A DNA stretch of 64,000 bases, from contig JBAZGN010000001.1 in assembly GCA_041652815.1 (NCBI GenBank), positions 509,855 to 573,854 on the forward strand, read 5' to 3'. Each line of letters opens with the position of its first letter. The stretch's first letter is position 1. Under the pieces are notes generated by a model that saw only the letters and a list, made by a program, of their open reading frames with translations, did no database searches and was not told the DNA's origin. A program made the translations under genes and the position numbers. The DNA is from Candidatus Omnitrophota bacterium. GTDB lineage: Bacteria > Omnitrophota > Gorgyraeia > Duberdicusellales > 4484-171. Positions 32,919-58,663 of the stretch are shown piece after piece.

Positions 32919-33573
32919 ATGAAGCTGTCAATATTAATTCCAGTTTATAATGAGATACATACACTATCCGCTATCATAAAGCAGAGCATATCTTTGGATA
33001 TAGATAAAGAATTAATCATTGTTGATGATTGCTCTAACGATAGTTCAAGGGGGATTTTGCAAGCTCAATACCAAAATAAGCCCAATATAAAAGTTATATA
33101 TCATGAAAAAAATATGGGCAAAGGTGCAGCCATTAAGACAGCTTTAAGCAAGGCTTGCGGCGATTATGCAATTATACAAGATGCGGATTTAGAATACGAC
33201 CCCCAGGGATTACCTAACTTTGCTGGAAACAGCCCAAACCGTAAACGCCAACGCAGTCTATGGCTCAAGATTTTTAAAAACTTGACGAGTAACGCCATTT
33301 ATGCGTTTTATGATTAATAAATTCCTGACTGTTTTAACTAATATATTATTCGGTTCACGATTAACCGATATGGAAACCTGCTATAAAATGATAAAGACGG
33401 ATATATTTAGAAATCTCGAATTACAATCAAACCGTTTTGAAATAGAAGCGGAAATTACAACAAAGCTTCTCAAGAAAGGCTATAATATAGTAGAGGTTCC
33501 TGTTTCTTATAGGGGCTGTTCTTACCGTGAAGGCAAAAAATTACATGGAAAGACGGTATTATTACTGTCTTAG
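32919..33573 (+). pseudogene. Disrupted GT2 glycosyltransferase (+1 frameshift in a C5 run near 33200, plus in-frame TGA at 33283-33285)
   Basis: Frame 0 gives MKLSILIPVYNE...IQDADLEYDP. The GT2 consensus continues in frame +1 (DYLTLLETAQTVNANAVYGSRFLKT*) and then after the TGA as RVTPFMRFMINKFLTVLTNILFGSRLTDMETCYK. Confidence 0.6.
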
Positions 33574-33598: not shown

Positions 33599-34702
33599 AT
33601 GAAGTATGTTTTTAAAAATAAATTATACCTAACTACCGTATTTTTCATCGATTTGTTAGGCGGTATTCTTGCATTGCCTTTTAAGCTATTTTCGCGAAAG
33701 AAAGCGGTAAATGTAAAACGCATTCTTTTAGTAAGGTTAGACCATATCGGAGATTTTGTTACAACTACCCCTTTATTTAAAAATATTAAATCTCACTTTA
33801 GCAAAGCCCATCTTACAGTTATAATAAATCCTGCCGTTTTTGATTTAGCGAAGAATAATCCCTATATCGATGAAATAATTACCTTTAAAGCGTCCTGGTT
33901 TGGTAGATATGCCAGCAATTTAAGCATGGCAGATTTTTTTAAATTGATTAAACGCATACGCAATGGAAAATTTGATATCGGAATTGAGCCTCGGGGAGAT
34001 TTTTTTTCGATAATCTTGATGTTCCTGGGGGGAGTTGAATACAGGATAGGTTATGGCGTAACAGGGGGAGGTTTCCTTTTAAATCAAGAAATAAAATACA
34101 ACAAAAATATACATGCGATAGAAAAAAATTTAGATGTATTACGGGCAATGAAGGTTCCCATAAAAAATAATTTTCCTCAAATTTATTTTTCCGGACCAGA
34201 TAAAGATTTTGTGGAAACTTTATTGAAAAATGTAAAATATAATGATAAGAAAGCAATAGTTATCCACCCTTACGCAGGAACTCAGGCAAAGCAATGGGGC
34301 GAAAGCAAATTTAAACAATTAATAAAAGAATTACAGGCAGATAATTACGATATTTTTATAATCGGAGCCAAAGAAGATGAAGAAAGCTATGATAGTGTTT
34401 ATGATCTAAGGGGTAAATTGAATTTGCCCCAACTGGCTTGCTTGATAAAACGTATCGGATTTTTTATAGGTCTTGATTCAGGCCCGGCTAATATTGCTGC
34501 AACCTTGGATGTGCCTGCGGTAATTATCTGTTCAGGAACGAATATCGCACAGAATTGGATACCTAACAGCTCAAAGGTAAGATTTGTATTAAAAGAGACA
34601 GAATGTAAACCTTGTGAATTGAAAGTTTGCCTTAAACAAAAACATTTTTGTATGGGTGATATTACGGTAGAAGAAGTAATGGGAGAGGTTAGTAAGTTCT
34701 AA
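33599..34702 (+). CDS. GT9 family glycosyltransferase (ADP-heptose:LPS heptosyltransferase-like)
   Basis: ILLVRLDHIGDFVTTTPLF...GLDSGPANIAATLDVPAVIICSGTN. Confidence 0.75.
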   Translation: MKYVFKNKLYLTTVFFIDLLGGILALPFKLFSRKKAVNVKRILLVRLDHIGDFVTTTPLFKNIKSHFSKAHLTVIINPAVFDLAKNNPYIDEIITFKASWFGRYASNLSMADFFKLIKRIRNGKFDIGIEPRGDFFSIILMFLGGVEYRIGYGVTGGGFLLNQEIKYNKNIHAIEKNLDVLRAMKVPIKNNFPQIYFSGPDKDFVETLLKNVKYNDKKAIVIHPYAGTQAKQWGESKFKQLIKELQADNYDIFIIGAKEDEESYDSVYDLRGKLNLPQLACLIKRIGFFIGLDSGPANIAATLDVPAVIICSGTNIAQNWIPNSSKVRFVLKETECKPCELKVCLKQKHFCMGDITVEEVMGEVSKF

Positions 34703-34717
34703 GTTGTAAGTTCTAAG
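34693..34717. repeat. Left inverted repeat (TTCTAAG/TTGTAAG heptamers) flanking the four-helix-bundle gene
   Basis: gtaagttctaagttgtaagttctaag; its reverse complement recurs at 35105-35137. It overlaps the GT9 stop codon. Confidence 0.6.
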
Positions 34718-34727
34718 ACGTGAAATA

Positions 34728-35102
34728 ATGGCAAATTTTAGAGATTTAAAAGTATGGCAGGAAGCACATAGGCTAACCATAGAACTTTATGAAATAAGCA
34801 AAAATTTTCCGCCAGTTGAGAGATATAGATTAACTGAGCAAATATGCCGCGCGGCTAGCTCTATAGCCGCAAATATTGCTGAAGGTACAGGTAGATATAG
34901 CCATAAAGATTTCATAAAATTTTTATATATTGCAAGAGGTTCTTTGGAGGAAACAAGGAGTTTTCTAATTTTGGCTTTTGATCTCGGATATTTAGAAAAA
35001 CAACGATATGCTATTCTAGATGAAAAATGTACAAGTATTTCAAAAATGATTAACGGTCTTATTGGGGCATTAAGTAAAAATATCAATAATTCTCTATCTT
35101 AA
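34728..35102 (+). CDS. Four-helix-bundle protein (23S rRNA intervening-sequence protein / Avd-like family, TIGR02436)
   Basis: FRDLKVWQEAHRLTIELYEISKNFP...ERYRLTEQICRAASSIAANIAEG...EETRSFL is typical of this family. Confidence 0.8.
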   Translation: MANFRDLKVWQEAHRLTIELYEISKNFPPVERYRLTEQICRAASSIAANIAEGTGRYSHKDFIKFLYIARGSLEETRSFLILAFDLGYLEKQRYAILDEKCTSISKMINGLIGALSKNINNSLS

Positions 35103-35104
35103 TA

Positions 35105-35137
35105 ACTTACAACTTAGAACTTATAACTTAGAACTAA
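35105..35137. repeat. Right inverted repeat flanking the four-helix-bundle gene
   Basis: acttacaacttagaacttataacttagaac is the reverse complement of the left repeat's heptamer units. Confidence 0.6.
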
Positions 35138-35140
35138 ACC

Positions 35141-36217
35141 ATGAAAATATTTTTCGATACCCGAATGATTGAGCACCCCGGAATAGGCCGTTATATTAAA
35201 TGTTTGCTTACGGAATTTAAGAAACGAGAAGAACTCGATCTGAATTTATTGGGAAACAAAGTTTTGATCGAAAAATATCTCGGCGCACACGAGAATATTA
35301 TCGATTTTAATTACCCAATTTATTCTACGCAAGAGCAATTAGGATTTCTGCAGATTAAAAAAATCATCGGTTCGAATATTTTACATATCCCACACTACAA
35401 TATCCCTGTTTTAGCAAATTTTAAACTTGTGGCTACAATCCATGACTTGATTCACATAGTTTATCCCCAGGGTGCCAGTAAAAAGTTTGCTTCCGTATAT
35501 ATGAAACTAATGGTAGAGCGGGTATTAAAAAAAGCAAAAAAAATAATCTGCGTTTCTAATTCAACAAAAGATTCTCTTCTCAAAATTTATGGGGAAAGGA
35601 AGCATAATATAAACGTGATTTATGAAGGTATAGAAGGAAATTTTTCGCAGATAGAAGATACAACTTATCTTTTTAGAATAAAAGAAAAATATAAATTACC
35701 GCAAAAATTTATTCTTTATGTGGGCAGCCTTCGAAGGCATAAAAATATAAAAATGCTTTTGGAATCATTTTCGAAGTTAAGAGAACGGATGTCCGATGTA
35801 TCATTGGTCATAGTGGGAAGGCTTAGCCACCATTTTGATCTGAATAAGAAAAACGTCTTATATATAGGAGAGGTTCCGGACGATCGTGAACTGGCTGCGA
35901 TATACAATTTATCCTGCGTCTTTTGTAATTTATCTCTTTATGAGGGATTTGGCTTGACCGTGTTAGAAGCGCAGCAATGCGGCACGCCGGTTATCTGTAG
36001 TGATATAGCTCCACACCTAGAAATAGGCGGAGACGGGGTTTTGACGGTTTCAGTGCAGGCTATTGACCGCGCAGTAGATAATTTGTATAATATTTTAACT
36101 GACGATAACTTACGTAATGCCCTCATCCAAAAAGGCTTCAAAAATATCTATAGATTCAATTGGGCGGATACAGCGAATAAAACCATAGCGGTTTATAAAG
36201 AGCTATTAGCGGATTAA
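35141..36217 (+). CDS. GT4 family glycosyltransferase
   Basis: MKIFFDTRMIEHPGIGRY N-terminus and EGFGLTVLEAQQCGTPVICSD. Confidence 0.75.
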   Translation: MKIFFDTRMIEHPGIGRYIKCLLTEFKKREELDLNLLGNKVLIEKYLGAHENIIDFNYPIYSTQEQLGFLQIKKIIGSNILHIPHYNIPVLANFKLVATIHDLIHIVYPQGASKKFASVYMKLMVERVLKKAKKIICVSNSTKDSLLKIYGERKHNINVIYEGIEGNFSQIEDTTYLFRIKEKYKLPQKFILYVGSLRRHKNIKMLLESFSKLRERMSDVSLVIVGRLSHHFDLNKKNVLYIGEVPDDRELAAIYNLSCVFCNLSLYEGFGLTVLEAQQCGTPVICSDIAPHLEIGGDGVLTVSVQAIDRAVDNLYNILTDDNLRNALIQKGFKNIYRFNWADTANKTIAVYKELLAD

Positions 36218-36244
36218 ACACAATAAATTTCTATTAATTTCCTA

Positions 36245-36328
36245 ATTTCTACCAATTTTCCGCCAGAGGCGGATCCGCCCACACATAAAAAGTCATCGGT
36301 GGCGGACAATCGAAATTAGTAGAAATTT
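36245..36328. repeat. Palindromic GC-core element, copy A (TIR aatttctac/gtagaaatt around core TCCGCCAGAGGCGGATCCGCC...GGTGGCGGA)
   Basis: The core at 36258-36307 is near-identical to cores at 41227-41271, 58146-58190 and 61189-61243. Confidence 0.6.
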
Positions 36329-36370
36329 GCTTCGCGAAATTCATAGCAATTAATTGTTTATAATTTTAAA

Positions 36371-40284: not shown

Positions 40285-41059
40285 AAATTATACGATAGCT
40301 GTCACTATTCCTTCAAAAAATTCAGAAAAAAAGATTGCAAACTGCTTAGCTTCAATTAAGGACTGGGCAGATGAAATAATAGTTTTGGATAGCGAAAGTA
40401 TTGATAAGACTGTTGAAATTGCTAAAAGTTTCGGCGCCAAAGTATTTGTTCATCCCTTTTTGGGCAGTTGGGCAAAAGAAAGAAATTTCGGAGCCGAACA
40501 GGCAAACAGCAATTGGATACTTTCATTAGATACAGATGAGGTGGTGAGTGAAGATTTTAAGAAAAAATGCGATGATGTCCTGCCTAATACAAAATGCGCC
40601 GCATTTAAATTCTGGAGAAAAAATTTCTTTTTAGGCCACCCTTTTCGTTACGGTGGCTGGTACCATAAATCGCAGCATCTCTATAACAAAAAATTTGCAC
40701 ACTATGAAGGCATGTTGCATGAAAAATATATAGTAAATGGAGAGGTTGGAGATTTAGATGCAGAGGTTTTACATTATCCTTTTGACAGTATATCAGAATT
40801 TATCGAACGGCAGAACCGTTATACCAGCATACAGGCGATAGAAATCATCGCCGAGGAAAAAGACCTGGATATTAAAAAAATAAAATATAATCTTACCTGG
40901 AAACCGCTAAAACTATTTAAGAAAATGTATTTTAACAAAAAAGGCTACAAAGAAGGAATGCACGGTTTGGTCTTTTCGATTCTTTTTTCCTGGGTGCATT
41001 TCGTAAAATGGGCTAAAGTGTGGGAAATATATAATAATTCAGACCAAAAATCTAAGTAA
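40271..41059 (+). CDS. GT2 family glycosyltransferase (WaaE/KdtX-like LPS core transferase)
   Basis: IAVTIPSKNSEKKIANCLASIKDWADEIIVLDSESIDKT...LSLDTDE. ATG at 40271 follows an AAGGAG RBS; the track's 40256 start is a TTG. Confidence 0.75.
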   Translation: MPKNKNYTIAVTIPSKNSEKKIANCLASIKDWADEIIVLDSESIDKTVEIAKSFGAKVFVHPFLGSWAKERNFGAEQANSNWILSLDTDEVVSEDFKKKCDDVLPNTKCAAFKFWRKNFFLGHPFRYGGWYHKSQHLYNKKFAHYEGMLHEKYIVNGEVGDLDAEVLHYPFDSISEFIERQNRYTSIQAIEIIAEEKDLDIKKIKYNLTWKPLKLFKKMYFNKKGYKEGMHGLVFSILFSWVHFVKWAKVWEIYNNSDQKSK

Positions 41060-41295
41060 AACTCTAAACCCGAAATCCTAAACCCTAAACAATCCACGAG
41101 CCAGAACAAAGTTCGGTTCGGGGTTGCCCAGAATCGAATTTATTCTGGTTCTGGGTAAAATCGAAACTACAAATCACAAACCCTAAACGTTTCGAGTTTG
41201 GAGTTTCGTGTTTGTGATTTGTTTAGAGTTTTCCGCCAGAGGCGGATCCGCCTTATTTTTTTAAGGTGGCGGACGAGTTTAGTGTTTAGAGTTTT
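41059..41295. repeat. MITE-like element, copy B (TIRs AAACTCTAAAC / GTTTAGAGTTT; CTAAAC heptad repeats; internal stem ACAAATCACAAAC/GTTTGTGATTTGT; GC core; ~70-nt nested palindromic insert at 41091-41160)
   Basis: Aligns base-for-base with 58036-58205 apart from the insert. The left TIR supplies the TAA stop of the upstream GT2 gene. Confidence 0.7.
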
Positions 41296-41318
41296 AATGA
41301 GGCCTAATTTAGCAAGCT

Positions 41319-43433: not shown

Positions 43434-43547
43434 TAAACGCGAATTATCGCGAATGTATACCTTTGTAAAATATTAAAGTATAAACGCTAATTTACGCGAA
43501 TGAATCTATTCGCGGCCATTCGCGTTTGATTAGCGAGAATCAGCGTT
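43434..43547. repeat. CGCGAAT-box intergenic element, copy R1 (contains the perfect IR CGCGAAT-gaatct-ATTCGCG at 43495-43514)
   Basis: Spans exactly from the upstream TAA to the ATG of the 43548 gene. The same ~120-nt pattern is at 54096-54221 and 61081-61259. Confidence 0.65.
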
Positions 43548-44345
43548 ATGAATAAAACAAAATTATCAATTGTGATACTTGCCAAAAATGAAGAAACAAG
43601 GATAAAAGACTGCCTTTCTTCAGTTGTTGGCTGGGCGGATGAAGTAATTGTAATCGATGATGAAAGTACGGATAGAACAGTTGCTATAGCCACGGAATTG
43701 GGTGCTAAGGTGTTTATTAAAAAAATGGATATCGAAGGCGCTCACCGTAACTGGGCATATGCAAAAGCAGCCAATGAGTGGATTTTAAGCCTTGATGCTG
43801 ATGAAAGGCCAACTGATGAATTAAAAGAAGAAATCAGTGCGCTTTTACCTACCAATCCCGCTCAAAGTGCCTTTACAATACCCAGAAGGAATTTTATCGG
43901 TGATTACTGGCTACGCTTCGGCGGACAATATCCAAGTGCCCAGCTTAAATTATTTAAAAAAAGTAAATTTAAATGGGAAGAGGTTGAAGTGCATCCGCGC
44001 CCTGAGCTGGATGGAGAATGCGGCCATCTTGCAAAAGACCTCATACATTATACCTATAGAGATTGGGCTGATTTTTTAAAAAAACTGAATAATCAAACCA
44101 GCCTAGAAGCTACAAAATGGTATAAACTTTCCCTGGAGAATCCTAAAAAAGCGCAATATAAGATGAATACTTTCCACGCTCTGTGGAGGACATTGGACAG
44201 ATTTATCCGCACCTATTTTGCCAAAAAAGGCCACCGTGACGGTTTTAATGGTTTTATGATTGCCTATTTTGCTTCGCTTTATCAAATAGTCAGTTACGCA
44301 AAATACCGTGAACTTAAGAATAAAGATAAATCGAAACACGATTGA
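43548..44345 (+). CDS. GT2 family glycosyltransferase (WaaE/KdtX-like; paralog of 40271-41059)
   Basis: LSIVILAKNEETRIKDCLSSVVGWADEVIVIDDESTDRT...LSLDADE. Confidence 0.75.
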   Translation: MNKTKLSIVILAKNEETRIKDCLSSVVGWADEVIVIDDESTDRTVAIATELGAKVFIKKMDIEGAHRNWAYAKAANEWILSLDADERPTDELKEEISALLPTNPAQSAFTIPRRNFIGDYWLRFGGQYPSAQLKLFKKSKFKWEEVEVHPRPELDGECGHLAKDLIHYTYRDWADFLKKLNNQTSLEATKWYKLSLENPKKAQYKMNTFHALWRTLDRFIRTYFAKKGHRDGFNGFMIAYFASLYQIVSYAKYRELKNKDKSKHD

Positions 44346-44478
44346 AACACAGTAGAAATACAATGGAAATACGGTAGAAATACAATTGTATTTCTATGTA
44401 TTTCACGAGCGAAGCGAGCATATTTCAACCGTATTTCTATTACATCTAAATCGCGCTTTACTTTAATCAACAAAAATA

Positions 44479-45696
44479 ATGTCTAAAAGGCGAATTATAA
44501 TTACCGGTTTGATAGCAATAATTTTTATTGCGCTCTTCTTCAGGTATGCTCATCGCGCCCCAAAGCGGCATTACTGCGATTTCAGGGTTTATTACAATAC
44601 CGCCCAAAGGTTTCTTGCCAAGGAAAATATTTACAGCCGTCCGGATGAAAGTATTACTCCTTTTAAATATTCAGCAGTTTTTGCGCTAATTACTTCACCG
44701 CTTGCGGTAGTATCCCAAAAACAGGCAAGCCTGATATTTTTCACTATAAGTTTTCTTCTGCTTATTCTTACATGCGTGCTTTCCAAGAAAATGATCGTAG
44801 AGCGGAATTTAAGCCCGGGGCAAAATTTCATAATTTATTTTTTCCCGGTATTTTTCAGCTCGCGTTTTATCTTCGCCGTTCTCGATTCCGGGCAGGTTAA
44901 CATAATGATATTTGCGTTAATAATTGCGGGGCTCTATTTATCGCAAAAGGAAAGAGACATTTCAGCCGCAGCATTGATTGCCTTGTCAGTTATGTTTAAA
45001 TATACGTCAATAATATTCTTGCCCTATTTTTTAATCCGCAGAAAGATAAAATTATCAATATTTATGATTTTATTTATGTTGTTTTATTGTTTTATTCCCG
45101 CAGCCTATGTAGGGATAAATACGAATTCGCAGTATCTTAAAAACTGGCTGCCATTTATAACAGAAACCTCTTTGGATAAAGGCTCGTGGTATGATGCGAA
45201 GAATCAGTCGCTTTATTCCTTTATCTTGCGTACATTTAGCGCGGATTCTTCCTTTAACCCCATAGCTCAATTAACCTTTATGCAGGCACTTGCCATTTCT
45301 GCAGCAATTGGAATGCTTATCTATCTTTTAATAATAGTTAAAAAGAAAAATAACGAGACAAAAGTTATTGATTATGCTCTTTTATTCCTATGTACGGCGT
45401 TGTTTAACCCAAATGCCTGGCTGGTAAATTTCGTAATTTTTGTTTTTGCATACATGGTAATTATCCGCCACCTGTTAACTGTAAAGTTTAAAGATAAAAT
45501 TACTTTAATTTTTATGGTGTTGTCTTTTATTTCTTCAAGCTGGGCAGCGGAATCTGTTGTTGGGGATAATTTGCAAAAATTCTTTGAATCGCTTTCAACA
45601 GTAACAATTGCAGCGCTTATTTTAGTGGTTATATTGTTATATTTAAAATTTAGTAGAGGAATAACCAAGTTCCAAGATACAATAACCAAACAATAA
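44479..45696 (+). CDS. DUF2029 / GT87-like polytopic membrane glycosyltransferase
   Basis: N-terminal DFRVYYNTAQRFLAKENIYS...PFKYSAVFALITSPL is typical of GT87/DUF2029 mannosyltransferase-like proteins. Confidence 0.5.
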   Translation: MSKRRIIITGLIAIIFIALFFRYAHRAPKRHYCDFRVYYNTAQRFLAKENIYSRPDESITPFKYSAVFALITSPLAVVSQKQASLIFFTISFLLLILTCVLSKKMIVERNLSPGQNFIIYFFPVFFSSRFIFAVLDSGQVNIMIFALIIAGLYLSQKERDISAAALIALSVMFKYTSIIFLPYFLIRRKIKLSIFMILFMLFYCFIPAAYVGINTNSQYLKNWLPFITETSLDKGSWYDAKNQSLYSFILRTFSADSSFNPIAQLTFMQALAISAAIGMLIYLLIIVKKKNNETKVIDYALLFLCTALFNPNAWLVNFVIFVFAYMVIIRHLLTVKFKDKITLIFMVLSFISSSWAAESVVGDNLQKFFESLSTVTIAALILVVILLYLKFSRGITKFQDTITKQ

Positions 45697-45871
45697 TCAA
45701 TAACCAAATTCTAATAACCAAACGGAAAAATCGATGGAATTGTTTGGTGATTGGTTATTGGAATTTGTTTGTATCTTGTATCTTGGTCATTGGTTATTTT
45801 ATGGGGTAATCCATACAACGAAGCAGTGTCGTAAACTATAAATTTCGTAATTCACGCGAGGTAGCGCAAGA

Positions 45872-47438: not shown

Positions 47439-47520
47439 ACTTCGAAAAGCTATCAGCTTTCGGCTTTCAGCTGCTGATAGCTTACGACTGATAGCTGAAA
47501 GCTTTCCCGGAGGTAATAAT

Positions 47521-48495
47521 ATGTTTAGTCTACGATTAAGAATGTCAATCCTGGTAATTATACTGTTTGCGATTCTTTATGCTATAGCATCGCTTATAAT
47601 GCATTATCTGGGTGTGCGAGGTTTCCTACCGCAAGTTTTACTCGCGGTTGGGATGATGCTTTTCCAATATCTGGTAGGCCCGAAAATTGTAGAGCTCTCG
47701 ATGCATGTAAAATATGTAAAAAAGGAAGATGTACCCTGGTTGTTTGAAATGGTTGAGGGTCTCTCCCGGCGGGCGAATGTTCCTATGCCCAAAATCGGGA
47801 TTGCCCATATAAACGTGCCGAATGCTTTTGCTTTCGGAAGAAGCCTGAAAGACGGAAGAATATGCGTTACCAAAGGTGTTCTGGACTTATTAAACAAAGA
47901 GGAACTGCGTGCTGTATTGGGCCATGAAATGACCCATCTAAAAAGCAGAGATGTTCTTTTTATCACTTTACTTTCGGTTGTACCGCTTATCTTATACTAT
48001 ATTTTTTTGCATTTCAGCCTTTATGGTTCGTATTCACGCAGGCGCGAAAGTGGAGGCTCCGCAGCTTTAATAGGTATTGCGGCATTCGTATTTTATTTCG
48101 TTACAAACCTTTTGGTTTTGTATGCTTCACGCATAAGAGAATATTTCGCGGATAAAGGTTCTTTAGATTTAGGAAACTCTCCGGCAAGCTTGGCAACAGC
48201 GCTCTACAAGCTTGTTTATGGCGCAGCCCGCCTTCCTAAAGAGAATTTACGCGAAATTGAAGGAGTGAAGGCTTTCTTTCTTAACGATTTATCCAAGGCA
48301 AAAAGCGAAATATCTGATTTGGCACAGCTTGATTTGGACAGAACAGGAACCATTGATCCTTATGAATTGCGTAGTTTAGCACAAAAGAAGATAAACTTAA
48401 GTTTTGCGGATAAGGCTATGGAGATTTTAAGCACCCATCCGAATATGCTAAAGCGCATAAAGCATCTTTCAGAGTATAACAAGGGGCAAGCTTAG
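47521..48495 (+). CDS. htpX: M48-family zinc metalloprotease HtpX
   Basis: HEMTHLKSRD (HExxH) and 4 transmembrane helices. ATG at 47521 follows a GGAGG RBS; the track's 47401 start is a TTG inside xseB. Confidence 0.8.
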   Translation: MFSLRLRMSILVIILFAILYAIASLIMHYLGVRGFLPQVLLAVGMMLFQYLVGPKIVELSMHVKYVKKEDVPWLFEMVEGLSRRANVPMPKIGIAHINVPNAFAFGRSLKDGRICVTKGVLDLLNKEELRAVLGHEMTHLKSRDVLFITLLSVVPLILYYIFLHFSLYGSYSRRRESGGSAALIGIAAFVFYFVTNLLVLYASRIREYFADKGSLDLGNSPASLATALYKLVYGAARLPKENLREIEGVKAFFLNDLSKAKSEISDLAQLDLDRTGTIDPYELRSLAQKKINLSFADKAMEILSTHPNMLKRIKHLSEYNKGQA

Positions 48496-55496: not shown

Positions 55497-55621
55497 CACA
55501 GATAATCACAAATTTGAACCAGATTATCACAGATGATATGAATTCTGTAACACGTCACAGGTAACACGTTTTTAAAACGTGATACGTGTGACGTGTAACG
55601 TGATACCTGCTGTGTATTAAT

Positions 55622-56191: not shown

Positions 56192-56282
56192 CAAAAAGGT
56201 TGAGGTTAAGGTTTAGGTTGAGAAATGCAAAGTTTAGTCTGATCCTTAACCTCAACCTTAGCCTTAACCTTCTTTTGGAACC

Positions 56283-56785: not shown

Positions 56786-56929
56786 GCTCGCTTTGCTCGC
56801 TAGGACGAGAGACGAAAGAAAATGAAAGGGCGAAGATAGAAAGAATAAAATTTTTTACTTTATGGCCCCTGTGATAATCTATTACAGAGGGGTTTTAAAT
56901 GGTATAAGTTGTTACAAGAAAGGAGAACG

Positions 56930-57331
56930 ATGAAGAATAAAAAAATTATCGTAATTTCAATTGTTATACTTCTGTTACTTGCCATAATATACGGACTTTT
57001 TCTATTGAGACCTTTCTTTTGGTGGTGTAGGGGCAGCATCTATGAACAACAGCAACCAGAGCGGGCAATATATTATTTCAATAAGGCGATACTAATGAGG
57101 CCAGATTACGTAGAAGCATATTTTTATTCAAGGTTTAAAGGGGAAGGCAAAAATCTCTCAGCATATAGCGGTGGTTTAGCTGTTTGTTACCAGATTCTTG
57201 GCGAAAACGATAAAGCAAGAGAATATTATAATAAGGCACTCGAACTATATCATAAACACGGCGATAAAACAGGCGTTATAGTATTGATAAATGCTAATCT
57301 AAAATTACTAGATAATAGGAATAAAAAATAG
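56930..57331 (+). CDS. Small membrane-anchored tetratricopeptide-repeat protein
   Basis: N-terminal transmembrane helix and TPR-like AIYYFNKAILMRPDYVEAYF...AREYYNKALELY. ATG at 56930 follows an AAAGGAGAACG RBS; the track's 56909 start is a TTG. Confidence 0.55.
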   Translation: MKNKKIIVISIVILLLLAIIYGLFLLRPFFWWCRGSIYEQQQPERAIYYFNKAILMRPDYVEAYFYSRFKGEGKNLSAYSGGLAVCYQILGENDKAREYYNKALELYHKHGDKTGVIVLINANLKLLDNRNKK

Positions 57332-58023: not shown

Positions 58024-58035
58024 ATTTTTTCTTAA

Positions 58036-58205
58036 AAACTCTAAATCCGAAACCCTAAACTCTAAACAAACTCGAAACTACAAATCACAAACTCTAAACG
58101 TTTCAAGTTTATGGTTTCGTGTTTGTAGTTTGTTTAGGATTTCCCGCCTTAGGCGGGTCCGCCTTATTTTTTAAAGGTGGCGGAAGAGTTTAGTGTTTAG
58201 AGTTT
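58036..58205. repeat. MITE-like element, copy C (same TIRs and GC core as copy B, lacking the nested insert)
   Basis: About 90% identical to 41059-41295 outside the insert. Its right TIR supplies the last codons and stop of the minus-strand cinA-like gene. Confidence 0.7.
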
Positions 58206-58663
58206 AACCTTCGGCATAATAAATCTACAGCCATTCGGCTTGCTTGTTTGCGGACATAATCCCTACTGCCCTTAAGCAGGATTTTTTTCGAAGCTACGCC
58301 ATATCTATCCGCAACAGCCATAAATATTGTGCCTACTTTTATACCCTTTTGAGCAGGGGCCGAGGCGAAACCTACCAAAGAAACCGCTAAATCTGTTTTA
58401 AAAAATTGTTTTGTTCGTTTCGCAAGAAGGATTGAAATGCTTTTAGAAACCCCTAGCGTTTTATTGAGCAGCGGCAGTGGTATGTGCAGCAATTTATTTT
58501 TGCTTTCCGGAGAATAAACTATGAGCCCGCCTTTAAATACCTTAGAGCTTCCGGGTGTTTTTGTCAGCAGATAAGATAAATAACCACCGCTTACGGATTC
58601 AACCGCAGATATTGTTAATTTTTTGATACGCAGATAAAAAATTAAATTTTTCAATTTAGCCAT
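58190..58663 (-). CDS. CinA C-terminal domain protein (nicotinamide-nucleotide amidohydrolase PncC-like)
   Basis: LTISAVESVSGGYLS...LGVS..SI...GAVS...MA..LA.........DLAVSLVGFASAP. Confidence 0.75.
   Translation of the reverse strand: MAKLKNLIFYLRIKKLTISAVESVSGGYLSYLLTKTPGSSKVFKGGLIVYSPESKNKLLHIPLPLLNKTLGVSKSISILLAKRTKQFFKTDLAVSLVGFASAPAQKGIKVGTIFMAVADRYGVASKKILLKGSRDYVRKQASRMAVDLLCRRLNSKH

Follow-up and report, generated by a model that had tools for sequence, protein, structure and literature searches.

An intervening-sequence-like gene cassette, probably mobile, with inverted heptamer arms at a glycosyltransferase junction of Candidatus Omnitrophota

The window analysed here is a stretch of 64,000 nucleotides (nt) from a Candidatus Omnitrophota bacterium (assembly GCA_041652815.1, contig JBAZGN010000001.1, positions 509,855 to 573,854 of the forward strand), and our subject is a small gene for a four-helix-bundle (4HB) protein that lies in it between two glycosyltransferase genes, of families GT9 and GT4, within a long same-strand polysaccharide-biosynthesis cluster. 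On either side of the 4HB open reading frame (ORF) stand tandem 7-nt units in inverted orientation, which we call heptamer arms. Gene and arms together, 34692-35140, are in our judgement probably a self-contained, horizontally mobile cassette of the build known from S23p-type intervening sequences (IVSs), set into the stop/start junction of GT9 and GT4. The cassette comes and goes at operon junctions, sparing the host genes and preserving both its protein and its arms. The copy in the window is called W, comparison loci and contigs carry L numbers, and the features of the locus are as follows.

33599..34702, + strand: GT9 heptosyltransferase-family gene (Pfam PF01075), host flank outside the cassette
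34692..34717, + strand: left arm, about 3.6-4 heptamers, (G)TAAGTTC TAAGTTG TAAGTTC TAAG, unit n-T-A-A-G-T-T
34718..34727, + strand: spacer between left arm and start codon, 10 nt, ACGTGAAATA, its length and sequence varying among four TAAGTT-type cassettes
34728..35102, + strand: gene for the 4HB protein (PF05635/TIGR02436; S23p or IVS-protein family)
35104..35140, + strand: right arm, AACTTAC AACTTAG AACTTAT AACTTAG AAC, reverse complement of the left-arm units
to 35140, + strand: right end of the cassette, a degenerate unit and then a conserved TAAACC abutting the GT4 ATG (35141)
35141..36217, + strand: GT4/GT1 glycosyltransferase gene (Pfam PF00534 and PF13439), host flank outside the cassette

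The arms are inverted arrays of the heptamer TAAGTTN. The left one reads GTAAGTTCTAAGTTGTAAGTTCTAAG (34692-34717) and the right one AACTTACAACTTAGAACTTATAACTTAGAAC (35104-35134), followed by a further, degenerate unit that fades out by 35137. Positions 34693-34712 and 35104-35123 form an exact inverted repeat (20/20), a second register matches at 22/23, and Tandem Repeats Finder assigns period 7 to both arms, with 3.6 and 4.6 copies. A 23-bp terminal stem is predicted in both the minimum-free-energy and the centroid folds (z = -3.66). The original prediction, made from the window alone, had described a 124-aa gene bracketed by heptamer-built inverted repeats and wedged between two glycosyltransferase genes with spacers of 25 and 38 nt. 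That description stands, and its arm coordinates were nearly right, the left arm starting one base earlier (34692, not 34693) and the right arm at 35104, not 35105. The upstream spacer runs from the GT9 stop at 34702 to the 4HB ATG at 34728, and the downstream one from the 4HB stop at 35102 to the GT4 ATG at 35141. What had not been remarked is that the GT9 gene ends inside the left arm, which encodes its stop codon (34700-34702) together with its last three codons (..SKF*); as we read the sequence, the 3' end of GT9 is rebuilt by the insertion of the cassette. The right arm ends 6 nt ahead of the downstream ATG, and both host genes are left intact. Within the window the heptamer TAAGTTS is confined to the two arms: TAAGTTSTAAGTT, with up to one mismatch, occurs six times, every one of them within the arms, where 0.45 occurrences are expected, and 0/100 shuffles reach six. 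The heptamers are thus not the ubiquitous simple repeats that might have made the bracket trivial.

The 124-aa product is a member of the PF05635/TIGR02436 family, in keeping with its prediction as an Avd/23S-IVS-family protein. Its match to PF05635 (23S_rRNA_IVP) spans the whole profile, positions 1-106 of 106, at 141.7 bits (cutoff 33.8; E 1.2e-41), and TIGR02436 ("four helix bundle protein") is matched at 131.5 bits (cutoff 24). In its AlphaFold2 model (pLDDT 96.1), helices span residues 8-24, 29-54, 59-85 and 91-123, and a Foldseek search with the model returned XCC0516 (PDB 2GSC; TM 0.88-0.96, root-mean-square deviation 0.7-0.9 Å) and also BT_0352 (2RLD), on both of which this up-and-down four-helix bundle can be superimposed. 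The crystal entries 2GSC and 2RLD contain five chains each, and from these chain counts and the literature a homopentameric barrel is predicted for the window protein. The family is very large, with 22,510 clusters at 50% identity matching at E <= 1e-3. Four of its representatives (P0135, P0204, P0241 and P0245) are 354-420 aa long with the 4HB domain N-terminal, and may have been fused, by read-through, to a gene lying downstream of a cassette.

To compare the junction among relatives, metagenome contigs were scanned with the downstream GT4 protein, and the GT9, 4HB and GT4 proteins were mapped back onto the matches. The five closest GT4 relatives (L088-L092, 85-88% amino acid identity) all lack the 4HB cassette. 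L091 is a clean empty site, in which GT9 (72% identical) and GT4 (85%) are adjacent, the GT9 ortholog ends in ...VWELKN* with its stop 5 nt from the GT4 ATG, and the junction contains no 4HB gene, heptamer or hairpin. L094, L096 and L097, with flanks about 50% identical, are also empty, and their stop/start junctions are overlapping or tight. When 34693-35134 is removed from the window in silico, GT9 ends in ...GEVSKP* with its TGA overlapping the GT4 ATG, which would be a junction of the type seen in the empty L094 and L096.

The same cassette is found elsewhere. In L093 it lies one junction downstream, where GT4 is followed by a GT1 gene homologous to window ORF 36371, and has a protein 87% identical to that of the window and the same TAAGTTS arms; in L001 (protein 91% identical) it follows a gene for a 625-aa methyltransferase-domain protein, so that W, L093 and L001 represent three distinct insertion junctions. 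In L002, as in W, the cassette has homologs of GT9 and GT4 for neighbours; the 4HB protein there is 75% identical to that of W, but identity falls to 42% for the flanking GT9 and 39% for GT4. The arms of L002 and W agree at 26/26 positions on the left and 33/37 on the right, while in the ORF synonymous sites are saturated and identity at codon position 3 is 62%. The L002 gene thus has the same heptamer inverted repeats at the same position, and the concern that a relative might hold the gene there without them did not materialise. In an alignment of the four copies (W, L093, L001 and L002), similarity extends from the left arm to ...CTTAGAACTAAA(C/A)C directly before the downstream ATG, and the flanks are unrelated; W, L093 and L002 have in common this right end followed by ATG, as well as an upstream gene that terminates within the left arm. 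Because the cassette occupies three different junctions and is far better conserved than its flanks, we regard it as portable, and the portable cassette of about 445 bp that had been proposed is supported by the empty sites, the three junctions and the discordance with the flanks. Purifying selection on the protein is strong (dN/dS 0.04-0.09, dS 0.3-1.8, against L093, L001 and L002), and third codon positions are 62-75% identical across cassette copies, with the arms better conserved. Selection on the protein, and arms conserved beyond the level of third positions, mark both as functional parts of the element.

The kinship to rRNA IVS cassettes that had been suggested for this gene holds in anatomy. 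The 23S IVS of Coxiella burnetii is 428-444 nt long, contains an S23p ORF, and ends in a 28-bp terminal stem that is cut mid-stem by RNase III; immediately before the S23p ATG it has three tandem heptamers, GACAGAT, in a copy number that differs from strain to strain (PMC4990558). The Coxiella element has both terminal inverted repeats and tandem heptamers. Set beside the S23p IVSs of Coxiella burnetii, Leptospira and Xanthomonas, the cassette in the window has a similar size (about 445 nt against 428-444 nt in Coxiella), an ORF of the same family in the loop, a comparable terminal stem (23 bp, predicted, against 28 bp in Coxiella), and tandem heptamers directly upstream of the start codon. 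They differ in that the cassette is hosted by an mRNA operon, at a junction between protein-coding genes, and the IVSs by helix 45 or 25 of 23S rRNA; that strong purifying selection acts on the ORF of the window, while the one in Coxiella is reportedly decaying; and that RNase III cleavage, shown for Coxiella and other IVSs (PMC4990558), is proposed here by analogy. Rfam gave no matches in the window at gathering thresholds, hence no rRNA, and the element lies between two glycosyltransferase ORFs. The cassette probably works like an S23p-type IVS, yet, because of this location, it is not an rRNA IVS.

We then asked how far this arrangement extends through the family. Species-representative genomes were scanned with an alignment of relatives, which returned 80 loci, taken with 2.5-kb flanks, from Bacteroidota, Acidobacteriota, Chloroflexota, Proteobacteria, CPR, Planctomycetota, Poribacteria, Cyanobacteria and others. 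None of the 80 lies inside an rRNA gene, and Rfam found only 3 tRNAs in these loci. Each locus was scored for its bracket by the best inverted repeat, without gaps, that joins the 150 nt on one side of the ORF to the 150 nt on the other. The mean score was 15.2, against 7.8 for mismatched flank pairs, and scores of 12 or more were reached by 62/81 loci against 17/243 controls; a bracket was present in 22/27 loci on viral contigs. Compared with themselves, the arms reached an identity of 0.67 at lag 7, against about 0.25 for other lags. In 71/83 loci one arm or both had at least three in-phase units, and the number of units per arm had its mode at 4-5. The unit differs by locus (TAAGTTN, TCAGCAN, TTAGCAN, TAGGGGN, TCGGCAN and further types) and shifts with the G+C content of the genome, but after rotation the units share a skeleton, n-T-H-A-G-N-N (T 0.85, A 0.78, G 0.94), with one position hypervariable within arrays. 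The motif points inward, in 40 array pairs against 7 outward. Arrays with this T-H-A-G skeleton numbered 104 in 385 kb, where 1.0 is expected (about 100-fold above chance), and 77 of them lay within 160 nt of a 4HB ORF; they are concentrated at 4HB genes and hence, at this scale too, are no ubiquitous simple repeats. The order of variant units is mirrored between arms (0.658, against 0.595 +/- 0.016 when shuffled; 0/300 shuffles reach the observed value), and because this mirroring exceeds chance, the arms are true inverted copies, though decayed. With same-strand neighbours the spacers barely exceed the arms in length (medians 44 and 32 nt), as estimated from crude stop-to-stop frames that served for spacer lengths only. 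In this family, therefore, the rRNA location is the exception, and a compact, mobile, heptamer-armed cassette at operon junctions is the norm.

Two simple rules for the heptamers were considered and rejected. For the unit as a protein-specific code no evidence emerged: it follows genome G+C, with TAAGT where the host is AT-rich and TCAGC where it is GC-rich, and the nearest relatives of the W protein, at 53-57% identity, carry other units. Nor do the heptamers serve generally as stops in all three frames, a role that suits TAAG and TTAG units but leaves TCAG units without a sense-strand stop.

Heptamer arrays of this kind have been described before under other names. Xanthomonas campestris has 186 GGGAATC-type arrays, mostly of four units and including 70 convergent pairs, which were considered as G-quadruplex candidates (PMC4692102). 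One of them overlaps the start codon of XCC0516, the crystallised pentameric PF05635 member (PMC4692102 supplement), unremarked in that paper; in the register of the cassettes, GGGAnTn reads n-T-n-G-G-G-A, with the same variable positions. Geobacter metallireducens has five-heptamer arrays in pairs (MTYCTGA, complementary to TCAGRAK) where one operon gene gives way to the next, and their annotation was as global regulator sites (PMC2700814); the TAACTGA repeats of Beggiatoaceae (PMC4679880) are the complement of TCAGTTA, the unit of the L059 and L087 arms. Together with GGGGAYT/STRR of Nostoc, these repeats have in common a 7-nt unit, usually in 4-5 copies, an intergenic position near gene ends, often in convergent pairs, and units that fit n-T-H-R-G-N-N. 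Tandem heptamers were found to be the most abundant intergenic periodic repeat in 7006 genomes, with "no clear clue" to function (PMC6344855). The papers on the four repeats, which discuss them as G-quadruplex elements, as regulatory elements or as sites that bind regulators, make no mention of the 4HB gene. From the 80 loci and the one published data point at XCC0516, we infer a general link between 4HB genes and intergenic heptamer repeats. A literature search, outside which most subscription journals lay, returned no paper that connects PF05635 in general with heptamer arrays at its flanks, and the family-wide bracket, the shared skeleton and the link to hitherto unexplained heptamer repeats appear to be new.

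These features suggest how the cassette might work. Two inverted arrays, each of 4-5 heptamers, would form a long stem, with the small 4HB gene in its loop. Three steps are proposed, in order of decreasing confidence. First, the cassette would be co-transcribed with its operon, as suggested by a count of promoter and terminator consensus sites that was not above that in shuffled sequence. Second, the arms would pair in the transcript into a double-stranded RNA stem of at least 23 bp; RNase III, as in Coxiella, would cut this stem, freeing the cassette mRNA, uncoupling it from the host messages and limiting harm to the host operon. Third, the predicted Avd-like pentamer may act on the heptamer arms, as RNA or DNA, with about one unit per subunit. 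Such recognition is suggested by the T..AG skeleton kept across phyla, by the match between 4-5 units and five subunits, and by RNA binding in Avd, the accessory protein of the diversity-generating retroelement of Bordetella phage BPP-1. Avd has the same 4HB fold, its family forms pentameric barrels, and its pentamer binds RNA stem-loops with flipped-out bases (10.1101/2023.10.23.563531); the structured RNA that it binds has distal flanks that pair with each other, although in our case the paired flanks enclose the protein's own gene. On this view selection would maintain the interaction of protein and arms, and the persistence or spread of the element would depend on it.

Several observations weigh against this interpretation of the locus or of its parts. 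A target-site duplication is not definable from the four cassettes, which show only an ambiguous TAA at both edges, and the cassette encodes no recognisable recombinase. Neither an RNase III gene nor a reverse transcriptase was found among the window ORFs scanned. The comparison contigs are metagenomic, with relatedness judged by protein identity alone, and presence and absence could in part stem from loss of the cassette and not from its gain. Nor do all loci have the bracket: 19/74 show no clear 7-nt periodicity, and 12/83 have no arm with at least three units. We also looked for strand-specific selection on an RNA stem, which is not supported: across 74 loci, arm mismatches were G:U-compatible in 96 cases and A:C in 93, and with no excess of G:U the data do not favour a constraint on a sense-RNA stem over one that is strand-neutral or acts on DNA.

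The alternative that survives best, though we consider it improbable, is that the hairpin came first, that is, that REP-like intergenic palindromes exist independently and a 4HB gene homed into, or was captured in, the loop of one already present. Hairpins without the gene do occur. The fetched loci contain eight gene-less inward T-H-A-G pairs with 0-131 nt between the arms (two in L026 and one each in L074, L024, L019, L048, L063 and L076), the window contains one at 47445-47505, and the five-heptamer array pairs of Geobacter metallireducens stand at operon junctions with no gene inside (PMC2700814). More broadly, 27 arrays in the 385 kb lie away from 4HB genes, against 1 expected overall, and the gene-less hairpins of the fetched loci usually share their unit type with a nearby cassette. 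They can, however, equally well be deletion derivatives of cassettes, as MITEs (miniature transposable elements with inverted repeats) are of transposons. The empty site L091 has no hairpin of any kind, the same arms are found with the same gene at different junctions (W, L093, L001 and L002) with homology beginning exactly at the arms, and nearly three quarters of the arrays (77/104) are close to a 4HB ORF, all of which speaks against this alternative. The comparison with REP/RAYT systems (REPINs) has some merit, since there too a single small gene is flanked by an inverted repeat, which in the loci covered here also appears as gene-less intergenic hairpins, but the window protein is not a Y1 (HUH) transposase, it matches no family other than PF05635 and, weakly, bAvd, and its repeat consists of heptamers in tandem that change in sequence from locus to locus. 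The cassette resembles REP/RAYT in layout, not in enzyme. As for the gene-less pair in the window (ATCAGCT TTCGGCT TTCAGCT / GCTGATA GCTTACG ACTGATA GCTGAAA), it lies in an intergenic gap upstream of the ATG at 47522, in an M48 peptidase gene region, and its unit is TCAGCTT, unlike the cassette's; the pair may be a solo hairpin derived from a different family of cassettes.

It is less probable still that the element is an ordinary non-autonomous transposon, with the arms as terminal inverted repeats for a transposase encoded elsewhere and the 4HB gene as an unrelated passenger. Transposons and MITEs share with the cassette inverted termini, presence/absence polymorphism (L091 and the other empty sites) and several insertion sites (W, L093 and L001), and neither the cassette nor the window ORFs scanned encode a transposase. 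The termini here, however, are tandem arrays whose unit changes by locus across phyla with only a 3-base skeleton kept, no target-site duplication is visible, and strong purifying selection acts on the protein together with the arms; nor would thousands of such elements have a passenger as their single constant feature.

We think it very unlikely that the gene is a resident, non-mobile accessory gene of the polysaccharide cluster, its repeats being local regulatory or mRNA-stabilising hairpins. The gene does sit in a long same-strand glycosyltransferase cluster and is placed between GT9 and GT4 homologs in three contigs (W, L002 and L109). It is nevertheless missing from the five closest GT4 relatives, is found at other junctions, including one beside a methyltransferase-domain gene, and differs in identity from its flanks (75% against about 40%). 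The third of those contigs holds a distant family member (L109:560-1190) whose protein is only 32% identical and whose long arms, with the left side duplicated, are made of GATTAAC / GAATTAAAT-type units of period 7-9 and not of T-H-A-G heptamers, so that its occupant is most simply read as an independent insertion.

That the gene encodes an orphan Avd is hardly credible and was rejected at this locus: fold-level kinship is real, with Foldseek matches to Avd (4DWL) and to a ribonucleoprotein of a diversity-generating retroelement (8UB7) at TM about 0.77, but the hidden Markov model matches are weak and below cutoff (NF033474 DivGenRetAVD, 35.5 bits against 80; PF22296 bAvd, 22.7 against 40), sequence identity to Avd is 12-13%, none of the 53 window ORFs scanned has a reverse transcriptase domain, no template repeat or variable repeat lies nearby, and the immediate neighbours are glycosyltransferases, so that of the Avd label originally attached to the gene the fold remains and the retroelement does not.

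Beyond the cassette at GT9/GT4, a wider reading is possible, which we offer tentatively, namely that PF05635 genes and T-H-A-G arrays form one pan-bacterial selfish-element system, in which the protein, as a pentamer, would recognise its own arms at about one unit per subunit, and the many gene-less arrays and hairpins found at operon junctions would be non-autonomous derivatives. STRR, TAACTGA, GGGAATC and the "global regulator sites" might be counted among those derivatives, and by analogy with Avd such a system might spread through its stem-bracketed RNA with a reverse transcriptase supplied in trans. If true, it would explain why tandem heptamers are the commonest prokaryotic intergenic periodic repeat (PMC6344855). 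Since 1993 the PF05635 family has been without a known function beyond "encoded in rRNA intervening sequences" or "Avd-like", and our results recast it as compact mobile heptamer-armed cassettes wedged into operon junctions. They also carry a warning that 4HB genes should not be taken as functionally "associated" with the host operon, as has been done for PF05635 genes wedged into cas operons, which were interpreted as cas-associated (PMC3936711), and they give the unexplained intergenic heptamer repeats of bacteria a candidate origin that can be tested. Cultured carriers of the family include Flavobacterium terrae DSM 18829 (L083), Pedobacter jejuensis (L020) and Xanthomonas campestris, in which the structure of XCC0516 is already solved.

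Other repeats in the window were noted in passing. Three copies of a small element (36226-36330, 41052-41301 and 58033-58210), none of which has an Rfam match at gathering thresholds, share a core, CCGCC-N3-GGCGG-N-CCGCC...GGTGGCGGA, flanked by inverted heptamer-like arms that differ per copy (AAATTTCTA type; AAACTCT/AAACCCT type). In these arms the T-H-A-G motif reads outward, opposite to the polarity of the cassette. The copy at 41 kb has an extra insert of about 75 nt, and the copy at 36226-36330 occupies the GT4-GT1 junction where L093 holds its cassette. Long hairpins of short tandem units also stand between same-strand genes at 43435-43527, 44329-44441, 45660-45798, 55547-55599 and 56196-56259; each has its own unit (CGCGAAT-like, an 11-mer, AATAACC-like, GTAACAC/ACGTGTN and the hexamer AAGGTT), and they do not fit the T-H-A-G skeleton.

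Just upstream of GT9, a family 2 glycosyltransferase gene is split into overlapping ORFs at 32919-33317 and 33301-33573. The split is a frameshift, reflecting either a pseudogene or an assembly error, and in L088 a stretch matching the C-terminal part of the 33301-33573 ORF is read in one open frame. Further downstream, a 21-nt inverted repeat (56763-56783/57451-57471; 90% complementary, with a 7-nt ACGT periodicity) encloses 667 nt that contain a 140-aa TPR-repeat ORF (56909-57331). The unit lies between pgpA and a minus-strand RNA 2',3'-cyclic phosphodiesterase gene, and may be a second small-gene cassette bracketed by inverted repeats, with a different cargo.

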